Assembly (NCBI GenBank): GCA_049303795.1
Contig: JBAQNM010000015.1
Coordinates: 36,590-100,589, forward strand
Source: Candidatus Moraniibacteriota bacterium
GTDB taxonomy: Bacteria; Patescibacteriota; Minisyncoccia; Moranbacterales; UBA2206
Length of the DNA stretch: 64,000 nt
Reading direction: 5' to 3'
Below are positions 14,227 to 60,900 of this stretch, piece by piece. The position numbers and the translations under genes are program-made. Numbering within the stretch: position 1 is the first letter of the stretch; each line of letters starts with the position of its first letter. Under the pieces are notes generated by a model. That model was not told the origin of the DNA. It worked only from the letters and a program-made list of their open reading frames with translations, and did not search any database.

Positions 14227-15909
14227 ATGTCTCAAACTCTATATCGAAAATACCGACCAAAAAACTTTTCCGAAATCATCGGACAGGCCCATATTGTGCG
14301 CACGCTTTCTAATGCCATCAAGCACAATCGCATTTCTCACGCCTATCTTTTCACCGGATCAAGAGGTACTGGGAAGACAACTTTTGCTAGAATTTTCGCC
14401 AAAACAATTAATTGTGAAGTTGTCGACAAAATCAGCACCGATGAAAAAATAAATTCTTGTGAAAATTGCCAGTCCTGCAAAACAATCCAAAATGGACAAA
14501 CCCTCGATATCATCGAGATCGACGCCGCTTCAAACACGGGAGTGGATAACATTCGTGAATTAAAAGAAACCATTGGCTTGCCTCCTACCCTGCTAAAATA
14601 TAAGGTGTATATAATCGACGAAGTGCACATGCTTTCTACTGGCGCTTTCAATGCACTTTTGAAAACACTCGAGGAACCACCAGCTCATGTCATTTTTATT
14701 CTTGCCACAACTGAAATTCATAAAGTGCCAGAGACAATCATTTCTCGTTGTCAAAGATTTGATTTTCCGCGCCTACCAATGCCAGACATCATCGAAAAAT
14801 TAACCCTTATCGCCGAAAAGGAAAAAATCACGATTGAAAAAGAAGCCTTGGAAATGATCGCCCTTTCAGCTGAAGGCGGTTTTCGCGATGCCGAATCACT
14901 TTTGGGACAAATCTTTTCCATGGAAGATAAAAATATCACCGCCAAAGAAGTGGAAGAAATTCTAGGCACCGCTGATAAAAGTTTTGTCATTGATATTGCC
15001 GAAGACATCGCCACCAAAAATACTACCAATGCAATCAAAAAAATCAATGAGCTAATCGCTAAAGGGTATGACTTGCAAATTTTCACTAAATCCCTGATTA
15101 ATCATTTTCGTCAATTAATGCTCCTCAAGGTTGATGAAAATTTCAAAGATTTTTTCACACGCGAAATGACCCAAGAAAAAATCAAAGCCCTTCAAAATCA
15201 AACAACCAAAATTGAGCTGCCAGAAATAATTTCCGCGATCAATCTTTTCCTGGAAGCGCAAAATAAAATCCATTCTTTTCTTTTGCCTCAATTAGCCCTG
15301 GAAATCGCCATCATCAAAGCCACCAGAAAATTTCCCGCACCAGAACAAATAATAGAGCAAGAGATTGCAGTGGAAAAAAATACTACTACGAGCACACCGG
15401 TAACAAACAAACCGGAATCACCTATCGCACAAAAACCAATAGCGCCAGTCTCGAAGCATACGGAAGTCATTGCAGATTCCCCTATTTCCCCCAAAAAAGA
15501 AATTGAAATAAATCCAAATATTTCGCTTGATGCGTCACTGCTAAAAAGTCGCTGGAACAAACTCTTGATTGAAATTCGCCCTCACAATCATTCTCTTTGT
15601 GCCTTTCTGTCTAATTGTCAAATTCTAAAAACCGAAGGCAACATTATCACGCTTGCCACACCTTATGATTTCTACAAAGAAAAGCTAGATGATCTTAAAA
15701 ATAAATTGACAATTGAAGAAGTTTTTAGTAAGATTCTTGAGTTACCCGTTCGCATCCAAATAGTGGTTGATAAAAATTTAGCGCCAATTCAGTCCTCCTG
15801 TTCTGAAGAAGAAATTCGACAAGAAACAACAAAAGAAGCACCACGCGAACAATCTTCACTCCTAACTTCCGCTATGGAAATTATGGGAGGAAAAGTTGTT
15901 GCAGAATAA
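14227..15909 (+). CDS. dnaX: DNA polymerase III subunit gamma/tau
   Basis: YRKYRPKNFSEIIGQ, Walker A GSRGTGKTT, IIDEVHMLS, a CxxC zinc module (CENCQSC) and sensor SRCQRFDF. Confidence 0.92.
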   Translation: MSQTLYRKYRPKNFSEIIGQAHIVRTLSNAIKHNRISHAYLFTGSRGTGKTTFARIFAKTINCEVVDKISTDEKINSCENCQSCKTIQNGQTLDIIEIDAASNTGVDNIRELKETIGLPPTLLKYKVYIIDEVHMLSTGAFNALLKTLEEPPAHVIFILATTEIHKVPETIISRCQRFDFPRLPMPDIIEKLTLIAEKEKITIEKEALEMIALSAEGGFRDAESLLGQIFSMEDKNITAKEVEEILGTADKSFVIDIAEDIATKNTTNAIKKINELIAKGYDLQIFTKSLINHFRQLMLLKVDENFKDFFTREMTQEKIKALQNQTTKIELPEIISAINLFLEAQNKIHSFLLPQLALEIAIIKATRKFPAPEQIIEQEIAVEKNTTTSTPVTNKPESPIAQKPIAPVSKHTEVIADSPISPKKEIEINPNISLDASLLKSRWNKLLIEIRPHNHSLCAFLSNCQILKTEGNIITLATPYDFYKEKLDDLKNKLTIEEVFSKILELPVRIQIVVDKNLAPIQSSCSEEEIRQETTKEAPREQSSLLTSAMEIMGGKVVAE

Positions 15910-16303: not shown

Positions 16304-16813
16304 TTATTGTTTCCTTTTCTTGTTTATATACCAAGCTAGTCCGCCTATGGAAACAGCACCAAACAGAAATCCCCCACCAAAAGAATTATCATCCGCTTTT
16401 TCTTTATTGAGATTTGCTATGGTAGATTGAAGATTATTTTTATCATCCTTCAAGTTGTCATTCTCTTTTTGTAATTCTTGCAACTTACTAGCATTTTCGG
16501 TCGCGGTGCTTTCTACTAGTTGTGAAATTGCACTATTATTTGAATTTTGTGGTTGAGTTGTTTTAACAGGGGTTTTCGGAACAATCGGTGCTGGCTTTGG
16601 TTTTGGAGGAATATATGTGCAACCGCAACTTGGACTATACGAACCATCATTACAGACATATTTTCCTACGGATGTGTCGCAATGCGAAACACCACCGTGC
16701 CAAGAACAACAACCACTTGTAGCATTTGCTGGCGTAGTGGAAAATAAAAAAACAGCCAAAAGTAGGACCGTGATAAAGAGATGTGTTTTTGCCTGCTGGA
16801 AACGAATTACCAT
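16304..16813 (-). CDS. hypothetical secreted protein with a Cys-rich module, Pro-rich linker, coiled coil and C-terminal TM anchor
   Basis: N-terminal signal peptide. Cys-rich segment SGCCSWHGGVSHCDTSVGKYVCNDGSYSPSCGC. Linker PKPKPAPIVPKTPVK. Heptad-like region and a terminal hydrophobic segment followed by KKRKQ. Confidence 0.5.
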   Translation of the reverse strand: MVIRFQQAKTHLFITVLLLAVFLFSTTPANATSGCCSWHGGVSHCDTSVGKYVCNDGSYSPSCGCTYIPPKPKPAPIVPKTPVKTTQPQNSNNSAISQLVESTATENASKLQELQKENDNLKDDKNNLQSTIANLNKEKADDNSFGGGFLFGAVSIGGLAWYINKKRKQ

Positions 16814-20130: not shown

Positions 20131-20192
20131 CTTTATATTTTTAAAAACAAAAAACCAGCTGATTGGGCTAGTTTCTAGATACCAGAGAATAC

Positions 20193-20807
20193 TTATCTTT
20201 CCGAAATGAATCGCAACTTATCTATCGCTGGAGTGTTATATATAAAATCAATTTTCTCTGAAACAATTTTAAGTATTTGCTGAGACGGCAGAGGCAGTAT
20301 TATACTGAAATTTTGATTTGGTGCTGGTGGCGTAGGCATTGTCGCCTGATTTACATTCACAACATTAATAAAATTACTATTTTGATGATCAGAAATTTTT
20401 TCAATCACAACATCTAAATATGCAGCATTTGTATAGAATCTACTTATAATGTCAATTTCTGATTCCTTAAGATCATTAACAAATAAATGAATATTTTTGT
20501 GCCAGCTATTGGTAGGCAAAAGTTTATCGGCAAGTTGATAGTTATAATCATTCACGCGAGCATCTTTTATTTGATGCTCTGCATATCTAATTTCTTGTAT
20601 AATCAATTGAGCAGAGTCCCGTTTATGATCAGACTTTTGTTTTAAATATAATGCTATAGCGGTTCCACCAACTAGTAATGTGACGATGGCCAAAAAGAAA
20701 TTAGAATTAAAAAAAGTATTAAATTTTGTATAAGATAAATATGCTAATGACGACCCAATTCCCAAGAGTAATATATAAAAACTTATTATATTCTTATCTT
20801 TTTTCAT
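20193..20807 (-). CDS. hypothetical membrane protein (2 N-terminal TM), co-operonic with the proteasome-like gene
   Basis: 204-aa ORF starting 4 nt after the stop of the upstream gene. Two hydrophobic helices. Confidence 0.55.
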   Translation of the reverse strand: MKKDKNIISFYILLLGIGSSLAYLSYTKFNTFFNSNFFLAIVTLLVGGTAIALYLKQKSDHKRDSAQLIIQEIRYAEHQIKDARVNDYNYQLADKLLPTNSWHKNIHLFVNDLKESEIDIISRFYTNAAYLDVVIEKISDHQNSNFINVVNVNQATMPTPPAPNQNFSIILPLPSQQILKIVSEKIDFIYNTPAIDKLRFISER

Positions 20808-20811
20808 AAAA

Positions 20812-21738
20812 TTATTCTATTTTTAGCTCTTTTTGCTTAATCCAGTTAAAACCACTCGGAGTTAGAACTAAAACATCCACAGGTCCACCGACACCAGGAA
20901 TATCACCTGGATCAGCTTGGATTCCATCAGAAAATCTTTGCAATGCTGCGGTTGTTTGTATAACCAGAACAGTAAAATCAATAGCGTCCTGAAGTGTCAT
21001 TGCCCCCCAATTTATGGCATATTCCAGTCCATTAAGTTGCTTCTCTATTTCTGCTTGTTTACCATTCTTTACACTTTCAACAACAAAAGGTGCATTAAAA
21101 ATTCTAGGATCCCAACCCTTAACAATTCTTGTAACAACATCGGTTTGTCCAAGCCAGCCAGCACCGTATTCTAAATTCTGTTGTTTGCTATCTCTCATTT
21201 TTAAAACTTCTCCTGGCACATTAACATTGTAAACTTCATGTGAACCGTCCGCGTTATATCCAGCAACAAATAAAGCTAACCCATCCACTGTTCCAATTCC
21301 ATCTTTAACTATTCCTGCTTTATCCTTAAATTTAAATTTTATACCAGGCGCCTCCTTTTTGATTTCCAAAAGTTCTAATCCTTGATTGGATAAATCAATT
21401 TTTACACGTTCCATGAGCTTATCCAACTCTGCATCAGGATTAATCTTCTTATCAAAAAGATAATGCAATTTATCAGCAACGTCTCTCACTGAAAAGTCTG
21501 CCACTTCAACCTCCCGCTTAAACTGCTCAATAAATTTACTAATATTTTTAAGTACACCATTCTCCTGAATAAAAGCAATCCCAGTTATTGCAACACCTAT
21601 GCGATCATTTATTAAAAATAATTTAGTAGCAGAATCAGAACCAACCCTAGAAACGCCTTTTTGATTTCTGTAAGATTGACGACTATCAGCTGCTAAAACC
21701 ATGCCTTCTGGCGTTGTTGTATTTATAGCTAAACTCAT
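20812..21738 (-). CDS. proteasome beta-subunit/HslV-like Ntn-hydrolase family protein with a C-terminal extension
   Basis: N-terminus ...NTTTPEGMVLAADSRQS...SATKLFLINDRIGVAITG parallels proteasome beta TT(I)VG..VVLAADTR...K(33)...AG. Putative Thr1 after a short propeptide; Lys at +33. An extra ~100 aa at the C-terminus. Confidence 0.5.
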   Translation of the reverse strand: MSLAINTTTPEGMVLAADSRQSYRNQKGVSRVGSDSATKLFLINDRIGVAITGIAFIQENGVLKNISKFIEQFKREVEVADFSVRDVADKLHYLFDKKINPDAELDKLMERVKIDLSNQGLELLEIKKEAPGIKFKFKDKAGIVKDGIGTVDGLALFVAGYNADGSHEVYNVNVPGEVLKMRDSKQQNLEYGAGWLGQTDVVTRIVKGWDPRIFNAPFVVESVKNGKQAEIEKQLNGLEYAINWGAMTLQDAIDFTVLVIQTTAALQRFSDGIQADPGDIPGVGGPVDVLVLTPSGFNWIKQKELKIE

Positions 21739-21829
21739 ATAATTGATTTTACTTTATTTAAAAGCCTTCTTATCCTATTTTACCATATTTAACATAAAAA
21801 TCAACCCGTAATTAAAAGGTATACTTGCT

Positions 21830-21878: not shown

Positions 21879-21906
21879 TAGGCTCATTTGAGCCTTTTTT
21901 ATTTTA
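21879..21906 (+). terminator. hairpin plus T-run immediately 3' of repeat copy 2
   Basis: AGGCTCA-TT-TGAGCCT followed by TTTTTTATTTT. Confidence 0.5.
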
Positions 21907-26373: not shown

Positions 26374-27261
26374 TCAACTGCACGGGTCGTCATCTCGATC
26401 ATGATGATCATTATACTTCCTACTGGCTTTATCATATCCTTCTTCATAACCATCCGTGTAGCCTTTGCTATGCCCAGCCGCTTTGCCTTTTCCATAGCCA
26501 GCCTTATAGCCTTTCGCATGACCATCAATATAGCCCGCTGTTAGCCCTTGATCATAGGTTCCTTTACCGTAACTACCGATAATAGTCCACTCCAGACCGA
26601 TTTCGGAAGCTTTTTTTACAAGATCAAGAAAATTATCGACCTTGTCCGGCTCATTTTTGAGCATATGGACAATGCAGAGTATCAGTTCGTGATAGAGAGT
26701 CGCCTCACTAAGATTGAGCAGATTGATTGCCTCCAGAATATTCAAGCTTCTGCCCGCACTCCATGTGTGCAAGCTAATTGCATCCATTATGAATTGGCTC
26801 AACTCTCCTCCTGCCAAATCCCAGATCGCAAAACATCTCCGAATGTATTCTTTGCCTACAGCAGCATCATAAAGTTTTTTTATTTCGATGGCGTACGCCT
26901 CGACCTTCACTTTGTCTTTTTCAGCAGAAAGGGTTCTGAGTTTTTTCGGTCCCAGAGTTGAATAGATATAGGCCCCGTTCCGGATGAGTGTTACCGCGAA
27001 GTCATCATCCATAGCGTTATCGATAACAATCTGGAAAAAATCAGACAGGTCTCCGGATTTTAGTTGTTCGATTATGACCATTCCCTGGCGAATAATTTCA
27101 AGACACGCCTTCGATGGTTGACTTAATGGGACCGCGTTCCTGATGCTATAAGCACCATTTAGGAATATGTCCACAACAGTCACTCCCATAGATTCAAGGA
27201 TTTCACTCAAATCGTCTCCACCGCCGAGTGATTGCAATCTTCTTTTTTGTTCATCGTTCAT
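26374..27261 (-). CDS. hypothetical protein with a C-terminal Gly/Tyr repeat (GYxxG..)
   Basis: 295-aa ORF with GC distinctly above the backbone. C-terminal GYIDGHAKGYKAGYGKGKAAGHSKGYTDGYEEGYDK repeats. Confidence 0.5.
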   Translation of the reverse strand: MNDEQKRRLQSLGGGDDLSEILESMGVTVVDIFLNGAYSIRNAVPLSQPSKACLEIIRQGMVIIEQLKSGDLSDFFQIVIDNAMDDDFAVTLIRNGAYIYSTLGPKKLRTLSAEKDKVKVEAYAIEIKKLYDAAVGKEYIRRCFAIWDLAGGELSQFIMDAISLHTWSAGRSLNILEAINLLNLSEATLYHELILCIVHMLKNEPDKVDNFLDLVKKASEIGLEWTIIGSYGKGTYDQGLTAGYIDGHAKGYKAGYGKGKAAGHSKGYTDGYEEGYDKASRKYNDHHDRDDDPCS

Positions 27262-37840: not shown

Positions 37841-38080
37841 AAAATCAAGACCCCACTGCTAGTTTCCCCATGAAAACTTATTTTGCTTGAAATCACCAGA
37901 AAAATGCTACTGATTCTTTTGGCGATATAGCCACTTGCTTTTTTCTTTATTCTGTATTAACCTGAATTCAGGCAGTTTTAAACAAAAAACTGCCAAAAAT
38001 ACAACAGAACCTTAACAAAAAGCATTGTGCTTTTTTTTGTTTTAGCCAACCAATACCCACATAATATCAGGAGGCGTTTT

Positions 38081-39367
38081 ATGCGAAATACTATTCTAGC
38101 GAAGCTAGAAAAAAGATTTTCCTTAACCTCCCCTATTAATATATGGATGAGGTTAGTAACAAAAATTGAAACAGAAGCTGGCAAGATGATTATATCTTGC
38201 CCAAACAACACCACCAAAAAAAGACTCGGGGCACTTTCCGAAGAGATCTGTTCCGCGCTTGACTTAAAAGAAATCAGTCTGGTTATTGCGGGTACCAGCG
38301 CTGAGGAAAATACAAAAACAGTCCCCGCTGGAGATCCACAGTTGCATCTTCCAATGCACATTTCCACAAAATCGCCAAGACTTAGACCAAATTTTAATTT
38401 TGCTAATTTTTTCGTTGGCAACTTTAATAGTGTAGCCTATCATTCGGCGATGGCTTTGATTGATGAAAAGCAAAAAGCAACGGCGCCTGTGTTCATTTTT
38501 TCCGAACCGGGACTTGGCAAGACCCATCTCGCGCAAGCAATTTGTGCGAGTAATCATTCGGCTTGCTACATAACTGCCCCTTTTCTTATGGACGAGGTAG
38601 TTTATGCCTGTAGTAACGGTGGCACTGGAAGCATAAGAAAAAGATTTGCAATAAACATTGACCTGCTTGTGGTCGATGAGGTTCAAAGCTTATCGGGAAA
38701 AAACAGAACTCAAGAAGAGCTGTGCTATATAACCGATACGATACTTGACCGAGGTAAAAAAATAATCTTTTTGGGAATGCTCTCGCCAGGTGAACTTTTA
38801 AGGATAAGCGACCCTCTTCTTTCTCGTTTTCAATCATCCACTATTTGCAGTATAACTAGGCCCGATCTTGAAGATAGATTCAACCTTATTCAAAAAAAGG
38901 CCTCTGTATCTGAGCAAGTGATTTCCGATGAAGTTATTGACATCTTGGCAAGAAGATTGAGCGGTGACGTAAGAGTTATTGAAGGCTGTATTACCAGCAT
39001 GTTAAATAAGGCCACTTTTTCAAGTAGACCAATTGATACTGTTTTGGCAGAGGAAATAATCGAACAATTTGCCTCCGCCAAGAAAAAAGATCCGGCCAGC
39101 GACATCCTGAAAGTTGTCACATCCAACTTCAATCTTAAGGAAAAAGATTTATTCTCAAAAAGCCGACAGAAAAAAACTGTAATGGCAAGACAAATCTGCA
39201 TGTTTTTCTTAAGAGAACAAACGAATATGTCGCTAAAAGCGATTGGAGAAATTTTCAATCGTGATCACGCGACAGTAGCATACGCTATAACGGAAGTTCA
39301 GGAGAAAATAAATCACCTCCCAAGTTTCCTAACAACTATCGCGATTCTTAGAAAACAAATCACATAA
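38081..39367 (+). CDS. dnaA: chromosomal replication initiator DnaA
   Basis: RBS AGGAGG then ATG 38081. AAA+ domain (Walker A GLGKTHL; LLVVDEVQ). C-terminal DnaA signature RDHATVAYA within the HTH domain. Confidence 0.85.
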   Translation: MRNTILAKLEKRFSLTSPINIWMRLVTKIETEAGKMIISCPNNTTKKRLGALSEEICSALDLKEISLVIAGTSAEENTKTVPAGDPQLHLPMHISTKSPRLRPNFNFANFFVGNFNSVAYHSAMALIDEKQKATAPVFIFSEPGLGKTHLAQAICASNHSACYITAPFLMDEVVYACSNGGTGSIRKRFAINIDLLVVDEVQSLSGKNRTQEELCYITDTILDRGKKIIFLGMLSPGELLRISDPLLSRFQSSTICSITRPDLEDRFNLIQKKASVSEQVISDEVIDILARRLSGDVRVIEGCITSMLNKATFSSRPIDTVLAEEIIEQFASAKKKDPASDILKVVTSNFNLKEKDLFSKSRQKKTVMARQICMFFLREQTNMSLKAIGEIFNRDHATVAYAITEVQEKINHLPSFLTTIAILRKQIT

Positions 39368-40266: not shown

Positions 40267-43200
40267 TTACGGGTTGCTAGCTGGATTTTTTCCGTTAATT
40301 TTTGCCTGAAAATCCATTAGCACCTCCACGGCGATTCGTTTAATTTCTTTATTATAATCATCGTTCTCCTTATTACTAGCTTTCTTGTCAGGCTTTTTTA
40401 TTTTATTAGTTTTCTTGAGAAAATCTTGAGTTAGGCCATCTACTTGTCGCATCGTTTCAAGCATTAAGTCCTTAAGACTAACATTTAATCTTATCGCCGT
40501 CTTTCGCAAAACATCTTCAGTGAATTTGTTTTCACTGATCATATCCATCATTTCTTTCGCCCCCTTATCAGCATTTAATTTTCGCTTTAATTCACCTTCA
40601 AACTCAAAAGGCTTTCCGGTAAGCTTAGAAAAAATTTCTTCCAAAGTTACTGTTAATTTTTCCGTGTTTTGCTTTTGCTTTGTCCACATGTGTCCGCGTA
40701 CACTAAATCCTTGGGAAAACATGTCCGGAGCCATCTTTTCTTGAGTGTATATTACAAAAGAATTGTCTTTTGGCGACCAGATAAGATAGGCGCCATAGCC
40801 TTTCGAAAAAACTGCCATTTGACTGGAACTGCCTTCTCCACTAATTTTAGGATACCACTTCCCTTTTTTACTCATTTTTCCAGTATCAATCAAGACCTTC
40901 CCAAAGCGATCATCGCCCGTATCAAAAACGAATTTGCCACATTCCTTGTTCTTTAAAAATCTTTCTCCATTTTCTATTTGATTTTGAATGTATTTTGCAA
41001 ATTCAGAAAGTGTTTCTGTCGTTCCTTTTTGTTGATTGGCGTAAGCGTACTTATCAAGATAGTCACTTGGAAGATCTGCCGCCGGATCCGTTCCGTTTCT
41101 AAAAAGTTCGATTATATCTTTGGTTTTCATTTTGTGTGACAAACCATACATATTCTTAGAATAATTTTGATAAACTTGTTTTATTTCAGCTTGTGTAAAA
41201 TTAAAATTATCAATTTTAGTGACAAATTCTACATATTTATCCAAATACGCTTCTTTTTTCAAAAGGCCCATTTCAACCAAAGTTTCATAGACGAGACTTG
41301 TAGCACAAGTTGTTCGATCAGATTCGTCTCCATGATGATCAAGAATCAAACGTTTACCGTCCTCCTCGGCAATAACCCCATGCTTCTTTTTTGAGGTATC
41401 CATAATCACACCGCTTTCTGAAATTTCTCCCGGCTTCACAAAATTAACTTTGTCCATATCCACTTTAATGCCCGCCAATTCCATAAGCTCCAAGCAAGAA
41501 TAGGCATCCAGATCTGCTTGCTTAACAATTTTTCCATTCACCTCTTTTCCGTGAATAGTCAACTCATCCCATAACTCACGCGTTAATGCCAAAAATTTTT
41601 GATCAGCTTCTTCAAGTGTTGGTGCGTTAAGATCCTCATATTTCTTAACCTTATAGATAGTATGCAAAGCCGCCGCACGCACCGGTGCATATTTTTTCTC
41701 TTTTTCCTTTAGCGCTTCAGCACGCCGATCATTTAAATTTTTTAGTGAAGTTAAAAAAGCCTTCAGATCTTCCTTTTTTGCCTTTTCCATCACTACTTCT
41801 TTTTCATCCTCCGCCACACTTGCCGGCTCTGCTTTGCCCAAAGTGGCCGCTGCTAATGCTGCTTTAACTTCTGCATCAAGCGCTCTTTCTCTTTCTTCGG
41901 CAGCAATTTGAGCTGCTAATTTTTCCGCCGATGATTCTGTTGGAGTTTTTTTCACTAGAGCCTCCAAAGGAGTTCTGACTTTCAATAGCAACATAGCCGC
42001 CCATGCAACTTTTTTACTTTTCATTTTATTAAATAACTCATCCTTTAGTGTTTTTTCTTTTAGAAAATCTTTCTGGATTTTTTCTTCCTTGATCTTTTGC
42101 AAATATTCATTAAGTTTCTGCTCGGTGTCGTAGGCTGTCGCCCAAGGCGCTTGAATATTTTTCTTCAAAAATACTTTTGCTTCAGCAACTGCAATATACA
42201 TTTCAGTTCTTTCCTGTTCAATATTTTTTGCATCTGAAAAGCCAATGAGATCAATTTTTTCTTGCTCGGAAAAAGTAATGCGAGATCCGATCTCATTAAT
42301 ATTCTCTAAAATTTCATGCATTTTTTGTTCGTCAGGATTGTGCTTTAATTTTTGCAAGCTTTTTCTTAGATTATCAGTAAGCTCAGTTGCACTTTTTGTT
42401 TCATATCTAAATCTTTCCATTTCCTCTCTTCTCTTTGATCCTTTTTCTATTACTTTTCCTTGAGCCATTTCTCGAGCATGTTGAGTGCGCTCCTCCTTGA
42501 TACGCCTATTTTCCTTCATCCCAGAGATAAGACTTCCGATACCAAGTCCAGCTCCAGCAGTAATTGGACTCAGCGCCCATTTTGCGAGTCCTTGAGTTAT
42601 ATTCACTGAACCCTTAGCCATTGCGCCTATAGCAATCGCCAAGGCAGAAACAATCACTGAATCTTTGACAAGTTTTCCGATAAATGATTTCTTTATTTTT
42701 TCCCTAATTTTATCTAACGCATTATGTTGTGGCTCTGTTTCAACTCCCATTTTCGCCCTTCCAATCACCACTTCAAAATCTCTATCAAGAGCATCCGATC
42801 CTTGTTTATGTGAAATATTATTTTTCACCTGCTTTGCTATTTCCAAAAGATTATCAGCAAAAACTAAATTATTTTTTTCTTTGGGTAAATAAATATTATA
42901 AAGTTTTCTCTTTTCTATTTGAAATTGTTCCTCAGTCAAATTCCCACCAGCAAAATTTTTAATAAGCTCGTTAACCTTATTTTTGATCTTAACATCAACA
43001 GGATCACTATTTTTTAAAGTATTTCTCTCTTCTCCTTTGCGCAACAAACTTTCAGATTCATATTCCGCCTCAAATCTCTTCACGATTGCCATCATCGCTT
43101 CTTTGTGGTCAGCCTTTTCACCATCCCCCGCTATAAGCGAATCACCTGCTAAGCGGATCTCTCTTTTGGCTTTAGCAATTTCTTTTTGGCGATAATAATC

Positions 43201-43398
43201 CTGCGCTAAATTATATTTCCAGATTTTTTTTAAAAAACCTTTAAAACCTTTTAACTCTGTCTTTGAAGACAACAATTTTTCTTCTGCAATATCACGAGCT
43301 TGTTTTTCAATGTCAACACTGGCAATAACAACGGTTTGTCTTTTTTCAATGGACGGCTGTTGAGGAAAGCTTGTTTTATTTTTATTATTTAATTCCAT
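40267..43398 (-). CDS. giant membrane protein (1043 aa): coiled-coil N-terminal region, Gly-rich TM hairpin, large C-terminal domain with DHH-like motifs
   Basis: Central hydrophobic Gly-rich helices (SVIVSALAIAIGAMAKGS...SPITAGAGLGIGSLISG). C-terminal region contains DLDAYSCLELMELAG and LILDHHGDESD, which resemble DHH phosphoesterase motifs I and III. The architecture parallels the ORF at 57985-61227. Confidence 0.6.
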   Translation of the reverse strand: MELNNKNKTSFPQQPSIEKRQTVVIASVDIEKQARDIAEEKLLSSKTELKGFKGFLKKIWKYNLAQDYYRQKEIAKAKREIRLAGDSLIAGDGEKADHKEAMMAIVKRFEAEYESESLLRKGEERNTLKNSDPVDVKIKNKVNELIKNFAGGNLTEEQFQIEKRKLYNIYLPKEKNNLVFADNLLEIAKQVKNNISHKQGSDALDRDFEVVIGRAKMGVETEPQHNALDKIREKIKKSFIGKLVKDSVIVSALAIAIGAMAKGSVNITQGLAKWALSPITAGAGLGIGSLISGMKENRRIKEERTQHAREMAQGKVIEKGSKRREEMERFRYETKSATELTDNLRKSLQKLKHNPDEQKMHEILENINEIGSRITFSEQEKIDLIGFSDAKNIEQERTEMYIAVAEAKVFLKKNIQAPWATAYDTEQKLNEYLQKIKEEKIQKDFLKEKTLKDELFNKMKSKKVAWAAMLLLKVRTPLEALVKKTPTESSAEKLAAQIAAEERERALDAEVKAALAAATLGKAEPASVAEDEKEVVMEKAKKEDLKAFLTSLKNLNDRRAEALKEKEKKYAPVRAAALHTIYKVKKYEDLNAPTLEEADQKFLALTRELWDELTIHGKEVNGKIVKQADLDAYSCLELMELAGIKVDMDKVNFVKPGEISESGVIMDTSKKKHGVIAEEDGKRLILDHHGDESDRTTCATSLVYETLVEMGLLKKEAYLDKYVEFVTKIDNFNFTQAEIKQVYQNYSKNMYGLSHKMKTKDIIELFRNGTDPAADLPSDYLDKYAYANQQKGTTETLSEFAKYIQNQIENGERFLKNKECGKFVFDTGDDRFGKVLIDTGKMSKKGKWYPKISGEGSSSQMAVFSKGYGAYLIWSPKDNSFVIYTQEKMAPDMFSQGFSVRGHMWTKQKQNTEKLTVTLEEIFSKLTGKPFEFEGELKRKLNADKGAKEMMDMISENKFTEDVLRKTAIRLNVSLKDLMLETMRQVDGLTQDFLKKTNKIKKPDKKASNKENDDYNKEIKRIAVEVLMDFQAKINGKNPASNP

Positions 43399-50712: not shown

Positions 50713-53286
50713 ATGCTAAAATTAAACCATTATATAGATACTCCTATGTCAAGAAAAAAACCCGACAAAAAAACACAACTTTTGAAACCAGAATTTCAAA
50801 ATATTTTAATTTGTAAGAAAAAAGAGCACCGCCCGTTCCTAGAGATTCTTATTGAAGAACCAGAAAATATCTCAAGAAAAAACCTAGGTGTCCTTGTTGG
50901 AATTTTTCAAATCAATGATTATTCTGAAGACTCCTCCTATATTGTAAACTACCTTATTTCGGTTATAAAAAAGGAGTATTTTTCTCATATTAATCACGGA
51001 TCAGTGGAAAATTTCGAAGCAGCTCTACATAAAGCTAATCTCGCCCTGGCAAAATTAGCTTCTCATGAAAATATTGACTGGATTGGTAATCTTAATGCTG
51101 TTTGTGCTGTAATCGAAAAAAATAATATCCTAATTTCTCAGACTGGAACAGCATCTGTCTTTCTACTACGCAAAACAAACTTTATTGAAATAACTGAAAG
51201 CACCCAAGAGCAATCTGAAATAAGTCCGCTCAAAACTTTTCAGGATGTAATATCGGGAAAGATAGAAAAAGATGATAAGATTATTTTTACGACAAAAGAA
51301 ATTTTTGAGCTTTTTTCCTTAGAAGAAATAAAAAGAAGCGCACTTAAATTCTCCCAAGATAATTTCATTCAATTTCTCAATACCGCTCTTATCAACGAAC
51401 TTGATCAAGTAGCGACATTAATTGTGGATGTTTTTGAACAGGAAGATCCAAGTGTCATGGCCTCTGCGCCAACAAAAAAAACACCCCAAATTAATGCTTT
51501 CAGTCAAACGACATTTAGAAAAAAAGAAGCCCCGCGTCAAACATTAAAAGAATCAGAAGAAATACCACCCGTAACCATTCTCAACCAAAACGAAACAACA
51601 GCGAAATCCAAAGAGAAGGAGGATTTTATTGATAAAAAAAATGGTCACATCTACATGAAGGAAGAGCTTGATTCAGAGGGAAAATCTGAAGAAAAAACGC
51701 CTTTGATTGATTTTTCTTTATTGTGGAATAATTTTATTACTTCCTCCTCTACTTTTGGAAAGAGTGCTAAAAAACAAATGACGATTATTGGAAAATCAAT
51801 CGCAATGCCAATATTATCCGTTAAAGCTAATACGAGAAAATACATAATAGCATCAACCAGAAATATTAAGGCAATCCCTGCTAAACTTAAAAAGAAAAAA
51901 GAAAGAACGCCTGATGAATTAGAAGCAATGGTTTTGAATAATTTAAGAAAAGAAGCAGCAAGCCAGCTAATAGAAAAACCAATTATTGACAATAACGAAC
52001 TGACAGAATCACTCCCGCCTAAAACATCAATCTATTTAAAGACAATTCAAACATATAATGACTACATTCCTAAGTTTAACAAAAAGTTTGCCTGGCTTTG
52101 GGAGGGATTTATTGACATTTCTGTTATTGTTTTACATCAACCAGTTAAAGGTTTTTTCGCTATTAAAGCTTTCCTCGAAGAGAAAAAACAGAGAGAAAAA
52201 ATAGAAAAAACTCCTGTTACTTTCGAAGAGAAGTTGAGCGAGAAAGATATTGAAGCTTTTTTTTCAAAGGATACTATCGCAACGTCTTCAATTGAAAAAG
52301 ATGTAGAAAAAAATTGGCTTCTCAAAGCAAAACAGGTCCTTCCTGATTTTTCCAGACTTAAGGATTTCGGAAATAAATTCAATTCCAAGCAAAAACTATC
52401 GGCCATCCTGATTCTATTCATGCTTTTGATAGTCCCCTATTGGATAGCAAAATGGGCGAATAAAACAACTGAGGAAAAAACAATTCCGATTGTTGAAACA
52501 GCGCCTATTGCAATATTACCGTTAGAAAAAGATAAAAATGTCATAAGATTAGAAAATTTAAATGAATTATATTCCGGAGAAAATATTCAAAACATAATCA
52601 ATCTCAAAAGCAAGTTGCTTGTTATCAAATCTGATTCCATTATCAATCTTGAGACACAAAAAAACATTCCAATTCCAGCTGATTTTAAAAATCCAGACTC
52701 ATCCTTCATCATGCAAGATTTAAATACTATCTTTCTTATTAAAAACAACCAACTATCAGGGTTCACTCCATCCAACGAAAAATTTGCAACCAATAATCTT
52801 GCTTTTCCAACTAGTGACAAAATAACTGATATTAAAACTTATCTCACCTATCTCTACATTTTAGATAAAAATAATAATCAAATTTATCGCTACCCAAAAA
52901 CTGAAGGCGGATTTAATGATAAATCAGCTTGGATCAGTGAAAATATCGATTTATCCAATTCCAGCAGTATGACTATAAACCAAAGTATTTTTGTCATTAA
53001 TAATAATGAGATCATTAAGTTTTTTTCCCATAAAAGAATGCCTTTTTCAATAGAAGAAACTGCCACGCCAATCATGCTGAGTAAAATATTCACCGCACAA
53101 GACATAACAAATTTATATATTCTTGATAATAAGAATTCAAGAATAATCAAATTAGATGCTGATGGAAATATAGTGGCTCAATATTACAATGAAAAAATTG
53201 CTACTGCTAATGTTTTTTCTGTATCAGAAGAAAATAATTTGATCTATATTTCAAATGGGAATGGGGTGGAAAGTTTTAATATGTAG
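50713..53286 (+). CDS. large hypothetical protein (857 aa) with a central TM helix
   Basis: Long ORF with a Lys/Glu-rich middle and one clear TM (LSAILILFMLLIVPYWIAKWA). The C-terminal ~350 aa has a beta-rich composition. Confidence 0.55.
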   Translation: MLKLNHYIDTPMSRKKPDKKTQLLKPEFQNILICKKKEHRPFLEILIEEPENISRKNLGVLVGIFQINDYSEDSSYIVNYLISVIKKEYFSHINHGSVENFEAALHKANLALAKLASHENIDWIGNLNAVCAVIEKNNILISQTGTASVFLLRKTNFIEITESTQEQSEISPLKTFQDVISGKIEKDDKIIFTTKEIFELFSLEEIKRSALKFSQDNFIQFLNTALINELDQVATLIVDVFEQEDPSVMASAPTKKTPQINAFSQTTFRKKEAPRQTLKESEEIPPVTILNQNETTAKSKEKEDFIDKKNGHIYMKEELDSEGKSEEKTPLIDFSLLWNNFITSSSTFGKSAKKQMTIIGKSIAMPILSVKANTRKYIIASTRNIKAIPAKLKKKKERTPDELEAMVLNNLRKEAASQLIEKPIIDNNELTESLPPKTSIYLKTIQTYNDYIPKFNKKFAWLWEGFIDISVIVLHQPVKGFFAIKAFLEEKKQREKIEKTPVTFEEKLSEKDIEAFFSKDTIATSSIEKDVEKNWLLKAKQVLPDFSRLKDFGNKFNSKQKLSAILILFMLLIVPYWIAKWANKTTEEKTIPIVETAPIAILPLEKDKNVIRLENLNELYSGENIQNIINLKSKLLVIKSDSIINLETQKNIPIPADFKNPDSSFIMQDLNTIFLIKNNQLSGFTPSNEKFATNNLAFPTSDKITDIKTYLTYLYILDKNNNQIYRYPKTEGGFNDKSAWISENIDLSNSSSMTINQSIFVINNNEIIKFFSHKRMPFSIEETATPIMLSKIFTAQDITNLYILDNKNSRIIKLDADGNIVAQYYNEKIATANVFSVSEENNLIYISNGNGVESFNM

Positions 53287-54644: not shown

Positions 54645-57110
54645 TTACAATCTTGTTCTCGCAATAATTTCCTGATTGACAATGTGTCTATCTCGACCGT
54701 ATGTTAGGCGGGATAATTCTTTTATCGCATTGGCAATTTCTTGACTGCCCTTAGTTGGAGCGAAGCCTTCAATATTAAACGGTTTCGTCAAAACACCATT
54801 AATCAAAACCTTGGCGAAGCCTTTATGGTTATCCACATTCACCAGATCATTACGAGTGAATACTGGCGCGACTTGTTTTTCCAAAAATTCCGCATCCTCC
54901 GGACCAACACGATATAGAATCATTGAGCCAATATTACCGAATACCGCTTTCGAAATTTCTTCTTTGAGCTGAGCTATAAATTGATGAGCAATATTAAGAC
55001 AAAGTCGATATTTTCGCGCTTCTGATAAAATTTGAGCGATAGAATTAGTAGTTACATTTTGAAATTCATCAAGATAGAGATAAAAATCAACACGATCATT
55101 TTCCGCGATATTAGTCCGCCCCAATGCTGCCATCAATATTTTACCTACGATCACCATACCGAGAAGTCTTGCGTTAATTTCACCAATTTTTCCCTTGGAA
55201 AGAGCAACTAGAAGAATTTTTTTATTATCCATTATTTCGCGAAAATTGATTGTACTCTTTTGTTGCGAAATAATTGGGCGCATCATGTCATTGGAAATAA
55301 AGGGCGTCAGCTTGGAAGTAATATAAGGCACCATATTAGCTAATGCTGCATCTCCTCCAGCTTTTTCAGCTTCTTTTGTCCAAAAATCAACCACTGTTTG
55401 ATTAGTGCATTTGGAAATTTTCATTGCACGAAATTCTTCATCCGCCAACACTTTAGAAATTTCCATTAAAGTTGAACCTGACTCAGGATCACTCATGACA
55501 AGAAACATAGCATTTCGCATATATTGCTCAAACATCGGTCCTCCAGTTGCCTTCAAATCATATAATTGATCAAAAATACCAATCATCTCATTAATCACGA
55601 AAGTCATTTGCTCCGGATGCTCAGGGTCATATTCCATCATATTAAGACCGAAAGGACGCTCAACATCAGACGGATCAAAAAAGACTACGTCTTGCGCTCT
55701 TTCCTTAGGAATTGAAGCTAGAATATCTTCAATTGCATCCCCATGGGGATCAATAAAGCAAAAACCTCGTCCCTCACGCGCATCTTGTTTAGCCATTTCT
55801 TGTAAAATAGTAGTCTTTCCAGTTCCAGTTTGACCAATTGCGTAAAGATGCCTTCTTCGATCACTTTCTGTCAAACGAATATCTGTTTTTACTCCACGAT
55901 ACTCATTAAAGCCAATTAGAATCCCCTCATTTGGAATCCCAACTGGAGGTGGTGCAGCATTAGCCTTGAGCCACTTAATTTTTGGCGCCTCAGTTGTAGA
56001 TATCGGAATATGAAAAATACTAGCTATTTCCTCTACCCCTAAAATCATCCCTTCTTCTGGTTTAAAATTACGGAAAATAAAATCATAGGCTGTTATTTGA
56101 TTATTACCTCTTTTGACCTTAAAGCAGTTAATGTCACCGTTTTCATATTGTGAAAAAGCATTTTCCAGATGCGATAAAATTTCTTGTGCTCGCTCGCTGG
56201 TAGCAGCTGATGCGACTAAGCGGATATTAGTTTCAAATCCTGTCTTTGAAGCTTTTTTCTCAATGCCCTTGACTAACTCTTGTTCTTCGGGGGTTAGCTG
56301 AACAGTCTTGTTTTTATCCATACCACTCTCGTCTTTTTTACCTGAAGACAACATTGTTGAAAAAACCTCACCGATTCCATCGAATACGTGAGCTCCAAAA
56401 GATTTATCCGCATCTTCAAGTCTTTTTCCTTGTTGCATCTTGTGTGCGATCTTTTTTCCCTCACTACGCCAAAGCGTTCCAGCTGGCTTGATAATCAACT
56501 GAATCCCGGCTCCCTCCGTTTCATTTTCTAGTTTACTAATTGCATTAGCGATAGCGTTAAGCGGATCCATTTTTTGGCTTTCATATGTACGAATCGGAAG
56601 TGCAGGCTTATTTTTAAGTTTAATTATCGACGTTACGGTTTTACTGCCAGGAGAAAAAATGTTGTAATCAGCTGCTCTTTCCAAAGAAGCATATGGAAAA
56701 AAACTATTAATCTGTTTTTCAATATTTTCTCTATACTTTTTTGGCACAGCAATAAAAAAAATAATCTCCTCGCTTTTTGATGGCTTTGCAATTTCTAAAG
56801 AAATACACGGAGAACCATACATTAATTTTTTGAAAAAACTATGCGTATCCTTAATAGATGAAAAAGCCGTCAACATTTGCTCCATCGCACCAATTTCACC
56901 CTTCCAAGACTCACCGTCCTTGCTTTTTTCTTCTTCTGATTTATTAAGCTTGGATACTCTAATTACATCTAAATCAAGGTTCATTGATTGGTTAATTTGA
57001 GCACGGAAACCAAGAAAACTAGAAATTATCATCCAGATTCCACTGATAAAAGTTAAAATACCAGAGACAATAAGGCAAATATTAATCAAGGGGGAGAGAT
57101 CTATATTCAT
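54645..57110 (-). CDS. membrane-anchored P-loop ATPase of the VirD4/TraG/TraD (type IV coupling protein-like) family
   Basis: N-terminal TM helix. Walker A HLYAIGQTGTGKTT, then FIDPHGD, Walker B YLYLDEFQN followed by IAHQFIAQL. The order and spacing of these motifs is what is seen in T4CP/FtsK-HerA-type ATPases. Confidence 0.65.
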   Translation of the reverse strand: MNIDLSPLINICLIVSGILTFISGIWMIISSFLGFRAQINQSMNLDLDVIRVSKLNKSEEEKSKDGESWKGEIGAMEQMLTAFSSIKDTHSFFKKLMYGSPCISLEIAKPSKSEEIIFFIAVPKKYRENIEKQINSFFPYASLERAADYNIFSPGSKTVTSIIKLKNKPALPIRTYESQKMDPLNAIANAISKLENETEGAGIQLIIKPAGTLWRSEGKKIAHKMQQGKRLEDADKSFGAHVFDGIGEVFSTMLSSGKKDESGMDKNKTVQLTPEEQELVKGIEKKASKTGFETNIRLVASAATSERAQEILSHLENAFSQYENGDINCFKVKRGNNQITAYDFIFRNFKPEEGMILGVEEIASIFHIPISTTEAPKIKWLKANAAPPPVGIPNEGILIGFNEYRGVKTDIRLTESDRRRHLYAIGQTGTGKTTILQEMAKQDAREGRGFCFIDPHGDAIEDILASIPKERAQDVVFFDPSDVERPFGLNMMEYDPEHPEQMTFVINEMIGIFDQLYDLKATGGPMFEQYMRNAMFLVMSDPESGSTLMEISKVLADEEFRAMKISKCTNQTVVDFWTKEAEKAGGDAALANMVPYITSKLTPFISNDMMRPIISQQKSTINFREIMDNKKILLVALSKGKIGEINARLLGMVIVGKILMAALGRTNIAENDRVDFYLYLDEFQNVTTNSIAQILSEARKYRLCLNIAHQFIAQLKEEISKAVFGNIGSMILYRVGPEDAEFLEKQVAPVFTRNDLVNVDNHKGFAKVLINGVLTKPFNIEGFAPTKGSQEIANAIKELSRLTYGRDRHIVNQEIIARTRL

Positions 57111-57984: not shown

Positions 57985-60900
57985 CTAAGCCGTCACTTTT
58001 CTACTTGAAAAAAGTTTAGTAACTCTGGCAACCCAATGCAACATATCTTCCCTATTACCATTGATATTTCCGCCTTCCGTATTGCCAATTCTTGCTTCAT
58101 CTCCCAGAAGATGAACGAAATCAGCTTCTATATTTTTTATTTTTTCAGCTAAAGCTGCATTAACAATTCCATTTTCCCTAGTTGATTCATAGGTTATTTC
58201 CCAAATTCTCCTATTTTTTATTATATCCCAGTTTTTAGGATCACCTAGCGACAATTCTACCATTAAATTCTTTCCAAAAGCTACTTCCTTAGTCATAAAA
58301 GAAGTTGCTTCGACATCATATTTCTCAAGTATTCCGATTGATTTTGAATCTAAATTATCATAGCCAGAATTTGACTGTTCCAAAGATTCAGTCTCAGCAG
58401 GTGTAACGTCTGATTCAACAGGAGCGACAGTTGCAGCTCCTTCTGCGCTATTCAAAGAATCATTTCCGGTTGATGCCGGCTTATTTTCAATATTTTTTTC
58501 CGTATCCAGCGGAGCAGGAGTGGCTTCTTTGGGAGCTGAAATTTCACTATCTGGCGTTTCAGAATCTGCGACATCAATATCTGGATTTCCAATTTCTCCA
58601 TCCATACCCGATTCAACCGCATTATCCGCACTTAAAATTTCAGGCTTTAAGTTTTCAGAGGTATTTTTGATAATTTCTTCCACCTTAGCTGGGGTCAGTG
58701 GTTGATCCGGGTTATCAATCCTCCAGCTAGCTATTTTGGCATTATTTTCAGTAATATTTTTCAACTCTTCGGGATTTAAACTTTCAGCTTGATAGAATGC
58801 ATCTGTAATATCAGAATCGTCCTCAAACAAACTGGACAGGTCGACTTCTTGACCAACATTAATTTCATCAACATTTTCCAATCCAAAACTGCTTGGATCA
58901 TTCGCCACTTTATCTTTCAATGCGTCTATAATATGGGCTTGTATGGCTGGATCGAGTTTGGAAAATCCCTCATAACGCCCTTGCAGTTGCCTATCAATCA
59001 TCTTCCAAACTGAATCGCCTTTTCCGACAATCTCAACGCCCTTAATATTTTCAACTGGCGAATTCGTGTCAAAACCTTTTTCAAAAGCATCCCCAGAGGC
59101 AATAGTCGAACTAGGTCCTGCTTCAGTTTCAAGATCCACTGACAACTCAGGAACTTTTTCTGAATAAATTTCAGAACTAGCGCCAACAGGAATCTCATGA
59201 TTATCTGAAGGAATTTCTGGATTAACCGGACTAACATTCGCATGCTCTGTTAAATTAATTGGTTTACCAATTTCTTCTAGTGAATCATTTCCCACTGAAA
59301 AGTTAGGGTCATACAAAGGAATTGTTGAATTGGTTGGTGGAAGATCAAATCCGGAGTCAGACGGAACCTTAGAGGCGTCCTTGAATAAATTATGAAAAAA
59401 TTCCTTCTTCCTTGCTAAATCAGCAGCTTTATCGGGTCTAAGACCAGAATCACTGCCTGCAGAATCAACGCTAGCATCAGATCCAGGGGAAACATCTGGA
59501 TTAGCATTTGCGTCGCTAGTTAAATCAACTGGCTTGCCGATTTCTTCCAAATGAGTATTTTCTGGTGAAACATCCGGATTAGCATTTGCGTGCTCCGCTA
59601 AATCCACTGGCTTGCCGATAGTCTCCAAGTGAGAACCAGGCAAGGGAACATCAACACTATTTCCAGTTGGAATTTCTGCGCTATTAAAATGACTGAAGAG
59701 GTAGGAGCCAGATCCAACAAGAATACCCGCTGTTATGCCAAAAAGCCTCCTGCTTCTCGCCTTATCCTTTTCCGTTTTTAAACCTTTAGCATATCCGTTA
59801 ATCTCCTCTTGCATTAATTCCTTCATTGCTTCATATTTTGCTTCCGGATTATTTATACTTTCAACATTTCTAATGATTTCTGCTTGTTTTTTTTGTCTTT
59901 CTGCTCCTTCTTTTTTTCTATATCTGACTTCAAGCGCTCCAGTTATACCAGCCCCAGCCATCAATCCAGATAAACCTCTTTTCATGAGTTTAGCGACTCC
60001 TACGGCACTGGCGAGACCAGTGGCACCTGCGAATCCAGCAGTGCCAGCGATGCCAACCGCCACACCAGCAGAAAGAAGCCCAACAGAAGCCAGCATTTTC
60101 AGCTTCCAATCCAATTTTCTATATCCATTAACAAACTTCTCGCTTTTTTTTGCTAGATAGTTAGGCAACTTATATTTATTCTCCCATGCCTCTGTCTTTG
60201 CATTAGTTCGCGCTTCAATAAGATTCATTTGCTCACTTTCGTTATAATACTTTGCCAAAACTTCCATTTTTTCAGTCAGTTCCGTTGGAGAAAGACTTTC
60301 TTTTTTAAGTTCTTTTATTTGATGATCAAGAAGATCTTTAAGTGCATCTTTATAATTGGCGAAATAAATTTTAGATTCTTGAGAAATTTGCTGATTAGGA
60401 CGAAAAAATCTTCCCAAAGTATTTTTTATTCCAGTAATAGCATTTGTCAGTTCATAGTCTTTTTTAGCATAGAGACCTCTCGCTATTTCAACTGCCGTCA
60501 TAAGATCTGCCTCTCGCTCCTTTCCATCAATGCCAGCATATTTCAGGTCTGCTGGAACAACATCCACTACCTCGGGAATGATTACTTCGGCGTTCTTACT
60601 AGTTTCCGGCTTAGCTTCAAAAATTTCCCGCAACGTCATTGTTCCGTCTTGCACACCTTTAACTAGATTCTCAAATTCCTCCACGCTTTCAATAGTCCTT
60701 TCCTCGAATCCACCACCCGGCAATTTAATACTAATTTCGACTATTCCAGTATTTTCTGAATAATCCTTAACAAAAAAAGCATCGCCATTCTTATCAAAAA
60801 CTCTATCATCCGGAGCTTTTTTCAAACCAAGACTATTGCATTTTTCAAAAAATTCTTTTTTACTTATAACACCTTCCTTTTTTACTTCCTCCTTGCTTCT

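Follow-up and report, generated by a model that had tools for sequence, protein, structure and literature searches.

The window analysed here, 64,000 nucleotides from a Candidatus Moraniibacteriota bacterium (contig JBAQNM010000015.1), contains two minus-strand open reading frames (ORFs) that occupy positions 20193-21738: gene A (20812-21738), which encodes a protein of 308 aa starting MSLAINTTTPEGMVLAADSRQS, and gene B (20193-20807), which encodes an all-helical, membrane-anchored protein of 204 aa. The A protein is a genuine N-terminal nucleophile (Ntn) hydrolase of the proteasome superfamily, and it fits the group of proteasome homologues with multiple insertions (PMI), whose published description it matches in its insertions after H1/H2 and between H3/H4, its taxon spread, its tight clustering and its lack of an AAA+ partner. 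It is likely that A is a Ser1 Ntn peptidase of PMI type that acts independently of ATP on selected substrates and that, in this lineage, works together with B on the cytoplasmic side of the membrane. The A family was already described computationally in 2021; what is added here is the register of its predicted serine nucleophile, its conservation between domains of life, and the association of B with either of two protease folds.

Fold, catalytic register and family of the A protein

The sequence-only reading of this locus had proposed that A belongs to the superfamily of proteasome beta subunits and HslV, and profile, fold and alignment to beta1 all place it there rather than in another Ntn family or outside the Ntn fold. 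PF00227 scores 25.6 bits on A against a gathering cut-off of 22.4, covering residues 9-55 only, and no other Pfam family is matched, while the archaeal beta and alpha subunit matches in NCBIfam are below threshold. An AlphaFold2 model of the A monomer built on 23 homologues (mean predicted local distance difference test, pLDDT, 71; predicted template modelling score, pTM, 0.71) gives 117 Foldseek matches in the PDB at E<=1e-3, and the best 50 of the 117 are all 20S alpha or beta subunits (probability 1.00, TM-score ~0.6 when normalised to the target) with alignments that span the whole query. A profile of 62 superfamily sequences matches mature yeast beta1 (PRE3) among PDB sequences with E=2.4e-6 over profile positions 4-145; the best 60 PDB matches of this profile are all 20S subunits, and there is no Anbu, BPH or HslV among those 60. 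With A alone as query, phmmer found no match among PDB sequences, and the profile of the 23-sequence family found alpha-subunit matches only, all sub-threshold. Other Ntn families, such as class II glutamine amidotransferases and penicillin acylases, were rejected as candidates, as none appears in Pfam or NCBIfam at E<=10 and the PDB fold matches listed are all proteasome subunits.

Four independent lines identify Ser2 (codon 21733..21735; all codons are on the minus strand) as the residue predicted to act as N-terminal nucleophile, in the place of Thr1, once the initiator Met is removed: complete S1 and S2 strands in the model, the alignment to beta1, a census of start residues, and conservation across 90 sequences. 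S1 is modelled at residues 3-9 and S2 at 12-18. The HMMER alignment to mature beta1 pairs profile position 4 with chain residue 3, and position 2 therefore corresponds to Thr1, D-S-R to D17-S18-R19, the Lys to K33 and the Gly to G47. In A these are Asp18 (21685..21687; Asp17 of the canonical numbering), at the head of the D-S-R that aligns with D17-S18-R19 of yeast beta1, Lys39 (21622..21624; Lys33 of beta1), which is preceded by a 5-residue insertion, and Gly53 (21580..21582), which the superfamily-profile alignment equates with Gly47 of the oxyanion hole. All 90 bacterial and archaeal family sequences compared retain Met1, Asp18, Lys39 and Gly53, and 89 of them have Ser at position 2, with Thr in the remaining one. 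A conserved nucleophile/Asp/Lys triad had been anticipated, and is found as Ser2/Asp18/Lys39, each kept in 89 or all of the 90 sequences. Two elements singled out earlier, the (V)LAADSR strand and the 'ATKLF' Lys, are likewise real proteasome-family motifs.

An 'MS' start is found in 115 of 117 close homologues, the remaining two representing an over-called ORF with an internal M|S. More widely, the nucleophile position is occupied by Ser or Thr only in all 232 sequences in which the motif could be placed, and is residue 2 in 206 of them; in the rest it comes after an upstream stretch with an M|S/T, G|T or signal-peptide-like end. When representatives at 50% identity are considered, Ser or Thr invariably stands 10 positions ahead of the hairpin Gly; the nucleophile is residue 2 in 91 representatives (40 MS, 43 MT and 8 VT) and follows an N-terminal extension in 24. 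Ser at position 2 provides a good context for methionine aminopeptidase, and removal of Met1 would expose Ser2. A G|T junction, the classic autoprocessing site of beta subunits, is present in 10 of the 24 extended representatives, and most of the rest show A|T, S|T or A|S sites that resemble those of signal peptides, or carry an internal Met because the start was called too far upstream. Signal-peptide-like sites (A-x-A|T or A|S) before the nucleophile suggest that secreted forms exist among distant relatives. Extended distant relatives include P0158, P0165, P0168, P0172, P0175-P0177, P0184, P0188, P0203-P0205, P0224, P0227, P0229, P0231, P0240, P0245 and P0248.

The sequence-only reading had described a hairpin about 5 residues shorter than usual and an extra ~100 aa at the C-terminus. 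The short hairpin followed from taking Thr7 as Thr1; S1 and S2 are complete in the model, and in the alignment to beta1 five extra residues fall instead in the S2-S3 loop (residues ~22-36, low pLDDT). The C-terminal extension does not agree with the data either. The last core strands lie at 287-293 and 296-301, close to the chain end at 308, and the motif VAGY(N/D)xDG at A residue ~160 pairs with beta1 residue ~100, an offset which implies that 60 extra residues have been gained by residue ~160. Together with the full-length Foldseek alignments, these features indicate that the ~100 extra residues are internal insertions rather than a C-terminal extension. Five insertion elements, from the S2-S3 loop to a loop before S9, were assigned from secondary-structure order, and this assignment is partly inferred. 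A short hairpin is modelled at residues 56-65, followed by helices H66-76 and H84-99, which represent H1/H2. The insertion after H2 (residues ~101-150; 21289..21438, minus strand) consists of H101-118 and a three-stranded meander (E122-129, E132-138 and E144-150) modelled at pLDDT 90-94; it is the least conserved region of the family and is partly missing in many relatives of 260-280 aa. By the same ordering, H198-206, which comes after the YGAGW motif, would be H3 and H249-270 would be H4, with an insertion between them (residues ~209-248; 20995..21114, minus strand) that contains modelled helices 211-214, 217-226 and 228-244. The highly conserved loop SDGIQADPGDIPGVGGP before S9 (residues 271-286; 20881..20928, minus strand), in which D271, G272 and G284 are invariant and G285 is present in 89 of 90 sequences, is a candidate equivalent of the Asp166/Ser169/Gly170 region, with a presumed structural role in a stretch of low pLDDT, and the invariant Asp271 within it is a candidate Asp166 equivalent.

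Fuchs, Alva and Lupas (2021, Bioinformatics 37:4694; PMC8665760) described by computation 22 new proteasome-like families, including six PMI variants that have neither a propeptide nor an AAA+ partner. Long insertions after H1/H2 characterise PMI-3 and PMI-4, and H3/H4 insertions PMI-2 to PMI-6; PMI-3, represented by OGZ26396.1, comprised 28 sequences at 90% identity, reduced to 11 at 70%, from 'other bacteria' and Euryarchaeota (PMC8665760). As judged from these described features, rather than from comparison with the sequence of OGZ26396.1, A is most probably of the PMI-3 subtype. In common with PMI proteins, A has the Thr/Ser1-Asp17-Lys33-Gly47 set on a proteasome-like core and no propeptide. 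There are also differences: we observe lineage-specific partners around A homologues (B, a LexA-type helix-turn-helix (HTH) protein and a transmembrane (TM) protein with TPR repeats), whereas no genomic context or partner hinting at function was found for the 22 families, and some wider relatives of A have N-terminal extensions with G|T or signal-peptide-like ends, whereas propeptides are confined to beta subunits and HslV according to Fuchs et al. (PMC8665760).

The best PDB matches to A by both sequence and structure are 20S subunits, and A shares the fold, strand order and catalytic register of 20S beta subunits (PF00227, MEROPS T1). It differs from them in that its predicted nucleophile is Ser rather than Thr and would be exposed by Met removal rather than by autoprocessing, in the distribution of its ~100 extra residues over five insertions, and in having neither an alpha-subunit gene nor an unfoldase. 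HslV belongs to the same superfamily and likewise exposes a residue-2 nucleophile when Met is removed. However, HslV is compact (~175 aa), lacks insertions, uses Thr and is encoded beside hslU, while A has 308 aa, a predicted Ser nucleophile and no hslU. Neither the ten flanking genes nor the window's ten largest ORFs include an AAA+ unfoldase, in agreement with the earlier statement that none is adjacent. This absence, together with the length and insertions of A, led us to reject A as an HslV.

The suggestion that A is an orphan of Anbu/BPH type stood in part. A is indeed a poorly characterised proteasome-like Ntn hydrolase which, in common with Anbu and BPH, has no dedicated AAA+ partner or known function, but it is neither an Anbu nor a BPH and fits the PMI group instead. 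Operons of Anbu reportedly contain genes for ATP-grasp, alpha-E and transglutaminase-like proteins, none of which is among the window neighbours of A. In addition, the long C-terminal H5 helix of Anbu (PMC8665760) is missing from the A model, which ends with strands 287-301, and on both grounds A was rejected as an Anbu. BPH is a compact protein whose pore loop is long and acidic, and the multiple insertions of A are foreign to both families. Connectase (PMC7980362), an archaeal protein ligase related to beta subunits, is another divergent proteasome homologue with extra elements that is found in methanogens and in which the fold serves specific non-degradative chemistry. According to Fuchs et al., H1/H2 are missing from Connectase and two helices inserted between S3 and S4 cover its active site (PMC8665760), whereas A keeps H1/H2 and has only the short hairpin 56-65; identity with Connectase (DUF2121) was rejected, given the presence of H66-76 and H84-99 and PF00227 as sole Pfam match.

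There are more than 1,139 homologues of A. Full-length relatives of 53-75% identity occur in many Patescibacteria, in Atribacterota, Omnitrophota and Peregrinibacteria, and in ~30 Methanobacterium genomes, and more distant family members in Fusobacteriota and Methanosphaera. Orthologues 55-57% identical to A are present in conserved housekeeping synteny in two cultured or complete-genome Methanobacterium, Methanobacterium ferruginis NBRC 105197 (L066; NZ_AP027738.1:640998-657924) and L079 (CP099988.1). So high an identity between proteins of the Candidate Phyla Radiation (CPR) and those of Methanobacterium implies that the gene has moved between domains and is under strong constraint. A protein identical to A is annotated 'hypothetical protein' in a Candidatus Moraniibacteriota metagenome-assembled genome. 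Viral contigs and a viral structure library contained no A relatives, and a phage origin of A was rejected for this reason.

Gene B and other partners of A homologues

The stop codon of A is 4 nt from the start of B. A candidate sigma-70-like promoter (TTGATT-16 nt-TAAAAT with an extended TG; 21777..21804, minus strand), which is a consensus match only, lies ~38 nt upstream of the A start, and a terminator-like hairpin with a 10-bp stem and a T-run (20150..20176, minus strand) begins 17 nt past the B stop. Terminator-like sites of the region are enriched over shuffles (7 vs 1.8), and this hairpin is the probable end of an A-B operon. The short gap and the promoter-like and terminator-like sites together give a layout that fits a two-gene operon.

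The earlier description of the downstream gene as encoding a 2-TM protein agrees with our data, as B has two N-terminal hydrophobic helices. Its AlphaFold2 model (pLDDT 84) is all-helical, with helices at 4-27 and 36-85, and hydropathy, alignment and model place TM1 at residues 8-26 and TM2 at 36-55 (20643..20786, minus strand); TM1 is specific to this sub-lineage, while TM2 is conserved in the B family. The long helix after TM2 is followed by a conserved LLPTNSW loop, a helix at 115-152, a disordered P/Q-rich linker and a conserved C-terminal helix. K/R-rich segments lie before TM1 and after TM2, and by the positive-inside rule the soluble domain of B would be cytoplasmic. The 184 homologues of B are all unnamed, and those with a labelled source are all from Patescibacteria. 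B has no family in Pfam, NCBIfam or PADLOC, with PF10112 in the TM region as the only weak, sub-threshold Pfam match, and its model has no significant fold match in the PDB.

B is encoded beside A in only 5 of 90 sampled A loci (the window, L011, L013, L021 and L043), 2-17 nt downstream. The reverse census covered 80 B-encoding metagenome loci, 62 of them with an upstream ORF. An A homologue is upstream of B in ~10 of the 80, whereas in 35 of the 62 the upstream ORF encodes a ~341-aa ClpP-like SDH-type serine proteinase (PF01972) that overlaps B or lies a few nt away (L119:2890-3966, L162:1242-2372 and 33 further loci among L090-L169). In 4 loci a Clp protease of PF00574 is encoded directly downstream of B (e.g. 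L118:4585-5157). At one further locus, L104, a 30%-identical A relative (179-937), a Cthe_2314-like HEPN protein (PF18730; 959-1702) and a B homologue (1752-2288) form a string. Approximately three-quarters of B genes directly follow a peptidase gene, and these peptidases are of two unrelated folds. In the window itself, A and B are present in one copy each and no SDH protease was found. A search for later papers on either PMI proteins or operons with SDH-type proteases returned nothing relevant, and the pairing of a protease with B appears to be undescribed.

With an A homologue upstream in only ~10 of 80 B loci, B was rejected as a dedicated partner of A, and the pairing of A with B is a lineage-specific arrangement and not a family trait. 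The preponderance of peptidase genes before B supports the view that A also acts as a peptidase and that B is probably a protease-associated anchor, regulator or substrate rather than a specific 'proteasome tether'. The sequence-only reading had raised the prospect of a membrane-tethered proteasome homologue; any tethering would be at best indirect, since A has no TM segment and the 2-TM partner occurs in a minority of lineages.

No neighbour of A conserved across phyla was found, nor any recurrent AAA+ unfoldase among 138 non-redundant neighbours in bacterial A loci. In the ~30 Methanobacterium genomes A lies in housekeeping synteny with genes for HisF, DNA glycosylases and a peptidyl-prolyl isomerase, a setting which we judged uninformative. 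In bacterial A loci the commonest neighbour families, counted with no background control, are DNA methylases, recombinases, GmrSD, AbiEii-type AAA_21 ATPases and HNH proteins, which hints at variable or defence regions. Certain partners recur within lineages. In 7 loci a PF01726 LexA-type winged-helix HTH protein without an S24 self-cleavage domain is encoded 1-16 nt upstream of A (L010:7610-7984, L014:2181-2555, L017:7611-7985, L025:7013-7999, L030:6989-7999, L040:590-1387 and L046:3082-3744), and the lack of this domain raises the idea of cleavage in trans by the proteasome homologue. In 11 Atribacterota loci the gene 27 nt upstream of A encodes a 392-aa protein that combines a pair of N-terminal TM helices with a long array of TPR repeats (L033:6780-7973; also L029, L032, L034, L035, L037, L038, L042, L045 and L047); this protein is membrane-anchored and unrelated to B. 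An unannotated protein of ~210-233 aa (cluster 48) is encoded downstream of A in 3 loci. At L001:5325-11743 (Yanofskybacteria), an A homologue is flanked on one side by a PhdYeFM/ParE toxin-antitoxin pair and on the other by a 149-aa protein of no assigned family, an N6_N4 DNA methylase and a ResIII helicase (type III restriction-like). PADLOC-DB 2.0 returned no defence match for A, B, the SDH protease, cluster 48 or cluster 65, and only generic TPR matches for the partners.

Proposed mechanism and competing explanations

The mechanism that we consider likely is as follows. A would be a cytoplasmic protein without a propeptide, from which methionine aminopeptidase would remove Met1 to expose Ser2. 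The hydroxyl of Ser2 would then serve as nucleophile and its free alpha-amine as base, with Asp18 and Lys39 completing the triad and Gly53 forming the oxyanion hole, as in 20S beta subunits. Such a peptidase would be ATP-independent and selective for its substrates, and would rely on lineage-specific partner proteins in place of an AAA+ unfoldase. In this lineage the partner would be the co-operonic B. This helical protein, anchored in the membrane and with a predicted cytoplasmic domain, may place proteolysis at the membrane as a protease-associated anchor, regulator or substrate. The peptidase activity of A, its oligomeric state and a physical interaction between A and B are elements of this proposal that we infer.

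Several of our observations weigh against this proposal. The A model is only moderately confident (pLDDT 71), and is low in two highly conserved loops, 190-209 and 272-284. The G192-A/S193 motif, at the Ser129 equivalent, is in a low-pLDDT loop and has Ala in 59 of 90 sequences and Ser in 31. B is not beside A in most lineages, including Methanobacterium, Atribacterota and many CPR bacteria, and is as such not essential to the core function of A. Promoter-like sites in the region do not exceed shuffled expectation, and the literature yielded no biochemical studies of any PMI protein. The fit to PMI-3 derives from a published description and not from the sequence of the representative OGZ26396.1, which we take to be an accession of the Rifle CPR series.

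The surroundings of bacterial A homologues suggest an alternative that overlaps with this proposal, in which A would be the switch protease of small mobile or conflict cassettes and would cleave a dedicated partner (the LexA-type HTH protein, B or the TPR protein) in trans, with cleavage turning on defence, abortive infection or mobile-element induction by a logic like that of ImmA/ImmR. This would account for tightly linked partners that differ by lineage (LexA_DNA_bind, 2TM+TPR, cluster 48 and B), for the toxin-antitoxin/methylase/ResIII setting of L001 and the string of A relative, HEPN protein and B at L104, and for methylases, recombinases, GmrSD, AbiEii-like AAA_21 and HNH as commonest neighbours; the inter-domain transfer implied by 53-60% identity between CPR and Methanobacterium proteins points in the same direction. 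However, A, B and their partners have no PADLOC match except generic TPR ones, relatives are absent from the viral contigs and viral structures searched, synteny in ~30 Methanobacterium genomes is stable and of housekeeping type, and the window neighbours are metabolic (isochorismatase, radical SAM, LUD and methyltransferase). The neighbour census, besides having no background control, draws on CPR genomes that are rich in restriction-modification systems. We regard a role in such cassettes as rather unlikely. It is less probable still that A is not a protease and instead catalyses Connectase-like ligation or transpeptidation, or hydrolyses small-molecule amides. Connectase demonstrates that monomeric proteasome homologues can be ligases (PMC7980362), and in the view of Fuchs et al. 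ring and double-ring assembly could be blocked by insertions after H2 and between H3/H4 (PMC8665760); a mean column identity of 74% would suit a specific macromolecular substrate, and the family is common in Methanobacterium. Against this, the A model keeps H1/H2 without the two-helix S3/S4 insertion of Connectase, PF00227 is the only Pfam match, and in the B operon A fills the slot of bona fide protease folds (PF01972 and PF00574).

Two further explanations are in our judgement very improbable. In a literal form of the sequence-only reading, Thr7 would be Thr1 of an Anbu/BPH-like orphan subunit with a short hairpin and a C-terminal extension of ~100 aa, and a membrane tether via a 2-TM partner would extend to the whole family. 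Lys39 is indeed the 33rd residue from Thr7, and a 2-TM protein is encoded 4 nt downstream; moreover, B and the Atribacterota TPR protein, which are both TM-anchored but unrelated, recur beside family members. The count of 33 is nevertheless coincidental, because the 5-residue loop insertion nearly cancels a 5-residue offset. A nucleophile at Thr7 would need a 6-residue propeptide, 'MSLAIN', yet M1-S2-L3 is invariant and aligned to Thr1-Thr2-x of mature beta, while Thr7-9 are not conserved in the superfamily. The complete hairpin, the internal position of the extra length in a core that ends at 301, the 20S identity of the best 60 PDB matches and the absence of a membrane partner from most family members are all contrary to this explanation. 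The same very low probability attaches to A being a catalytically dead, alpha-subunit-like scaffold: the family profile matches alpha and beta subunits alike, and two-thirds of members have Ala in place of Ser129, but the catalytic positions (nucleophile, Asp, Lys and Gly) stay invariant in both bacteria and archaea and, unlike alpha subunits, A has no N-terminal extension over the nucleophile.

An extension of the Ser1 peptidase proposal, which we put forward tentatively and think more probably wrong than right, is that B-type proteins define an unrecognised 'protease + membrane partner' module of Patescibacteria, in which the protease slot is filled by non-homologous enzymes, usually of ClpP-fold SDH type and sometimes of A type, and that PMI-3 proteins are trans-acting switch proteases for B, LexA-type and TM-TPR partners. 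If true, this would be the first functional context for an orphan proteasome homologue, a class of proteins that constitutes a recognised open problem. A membrane partner recurs whose own family is found mainly with a protease of unrelated fold, which points to a membrane module dependent on a protease and makes B a candidate interactor or substrate. The A locus also offers a firm catalytic register with a predicted serine nucleophile that is open to mutagenesis and activity-based probes, and the highly conserved presence of the family in cultured, complete-genome Methanobacterium makes experiments feasible outside the uncultured CPR. The broad picture of proteasome evolution is unchanged by these results, whose value is incremental.

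Other features of the window

The genes that flank A and B in the window encode isochorismatase, radical SAM, LUD and methyltransferase proteins as well as proteins of no assigned family (ten flanking genes in all). GC content is uniformly 0.32-0.40 across the region, with no sign of a foreign island. A plus-strand terminator-like hairpin, AGGCTCATTTGAGCCT followed by a T-run (21880-21895), lies in the intergenic region upstream of A, where no plus-strand gene ends before it. DnaA and the gamma/tau subunit of DNA polymerase III, the latter judged from sequence, are encoded at 38027-39367 and 14227-15909 respectively, both on the plus strand, and may indicate that the chromosomal origin region is nearby; cumulative GC skew has no turning point inside the window. 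A TrwB/TraG-like type IV coupling protein is encoded near three ORFs of 821-1080 aa without a Pfam match (54645-57110, minus; 57985-61227, minus; 50713-53286, plus; 40267-43398, minus, for the four genes), and the coupling protein and these very large ORFs may together represent a conjugation- or secretion-related cluster. Two unannotated proteins of odd composition are encoded on the minus strand at 16304-16813 and 26374-27261. One has 169 aa, with a signal or TM segment, a Cys-rich region, a coiled coil and a C-terminal TM segment, and the other, of 295 aa, ends in repeated GY-x-x-GY-x-KG motifs.

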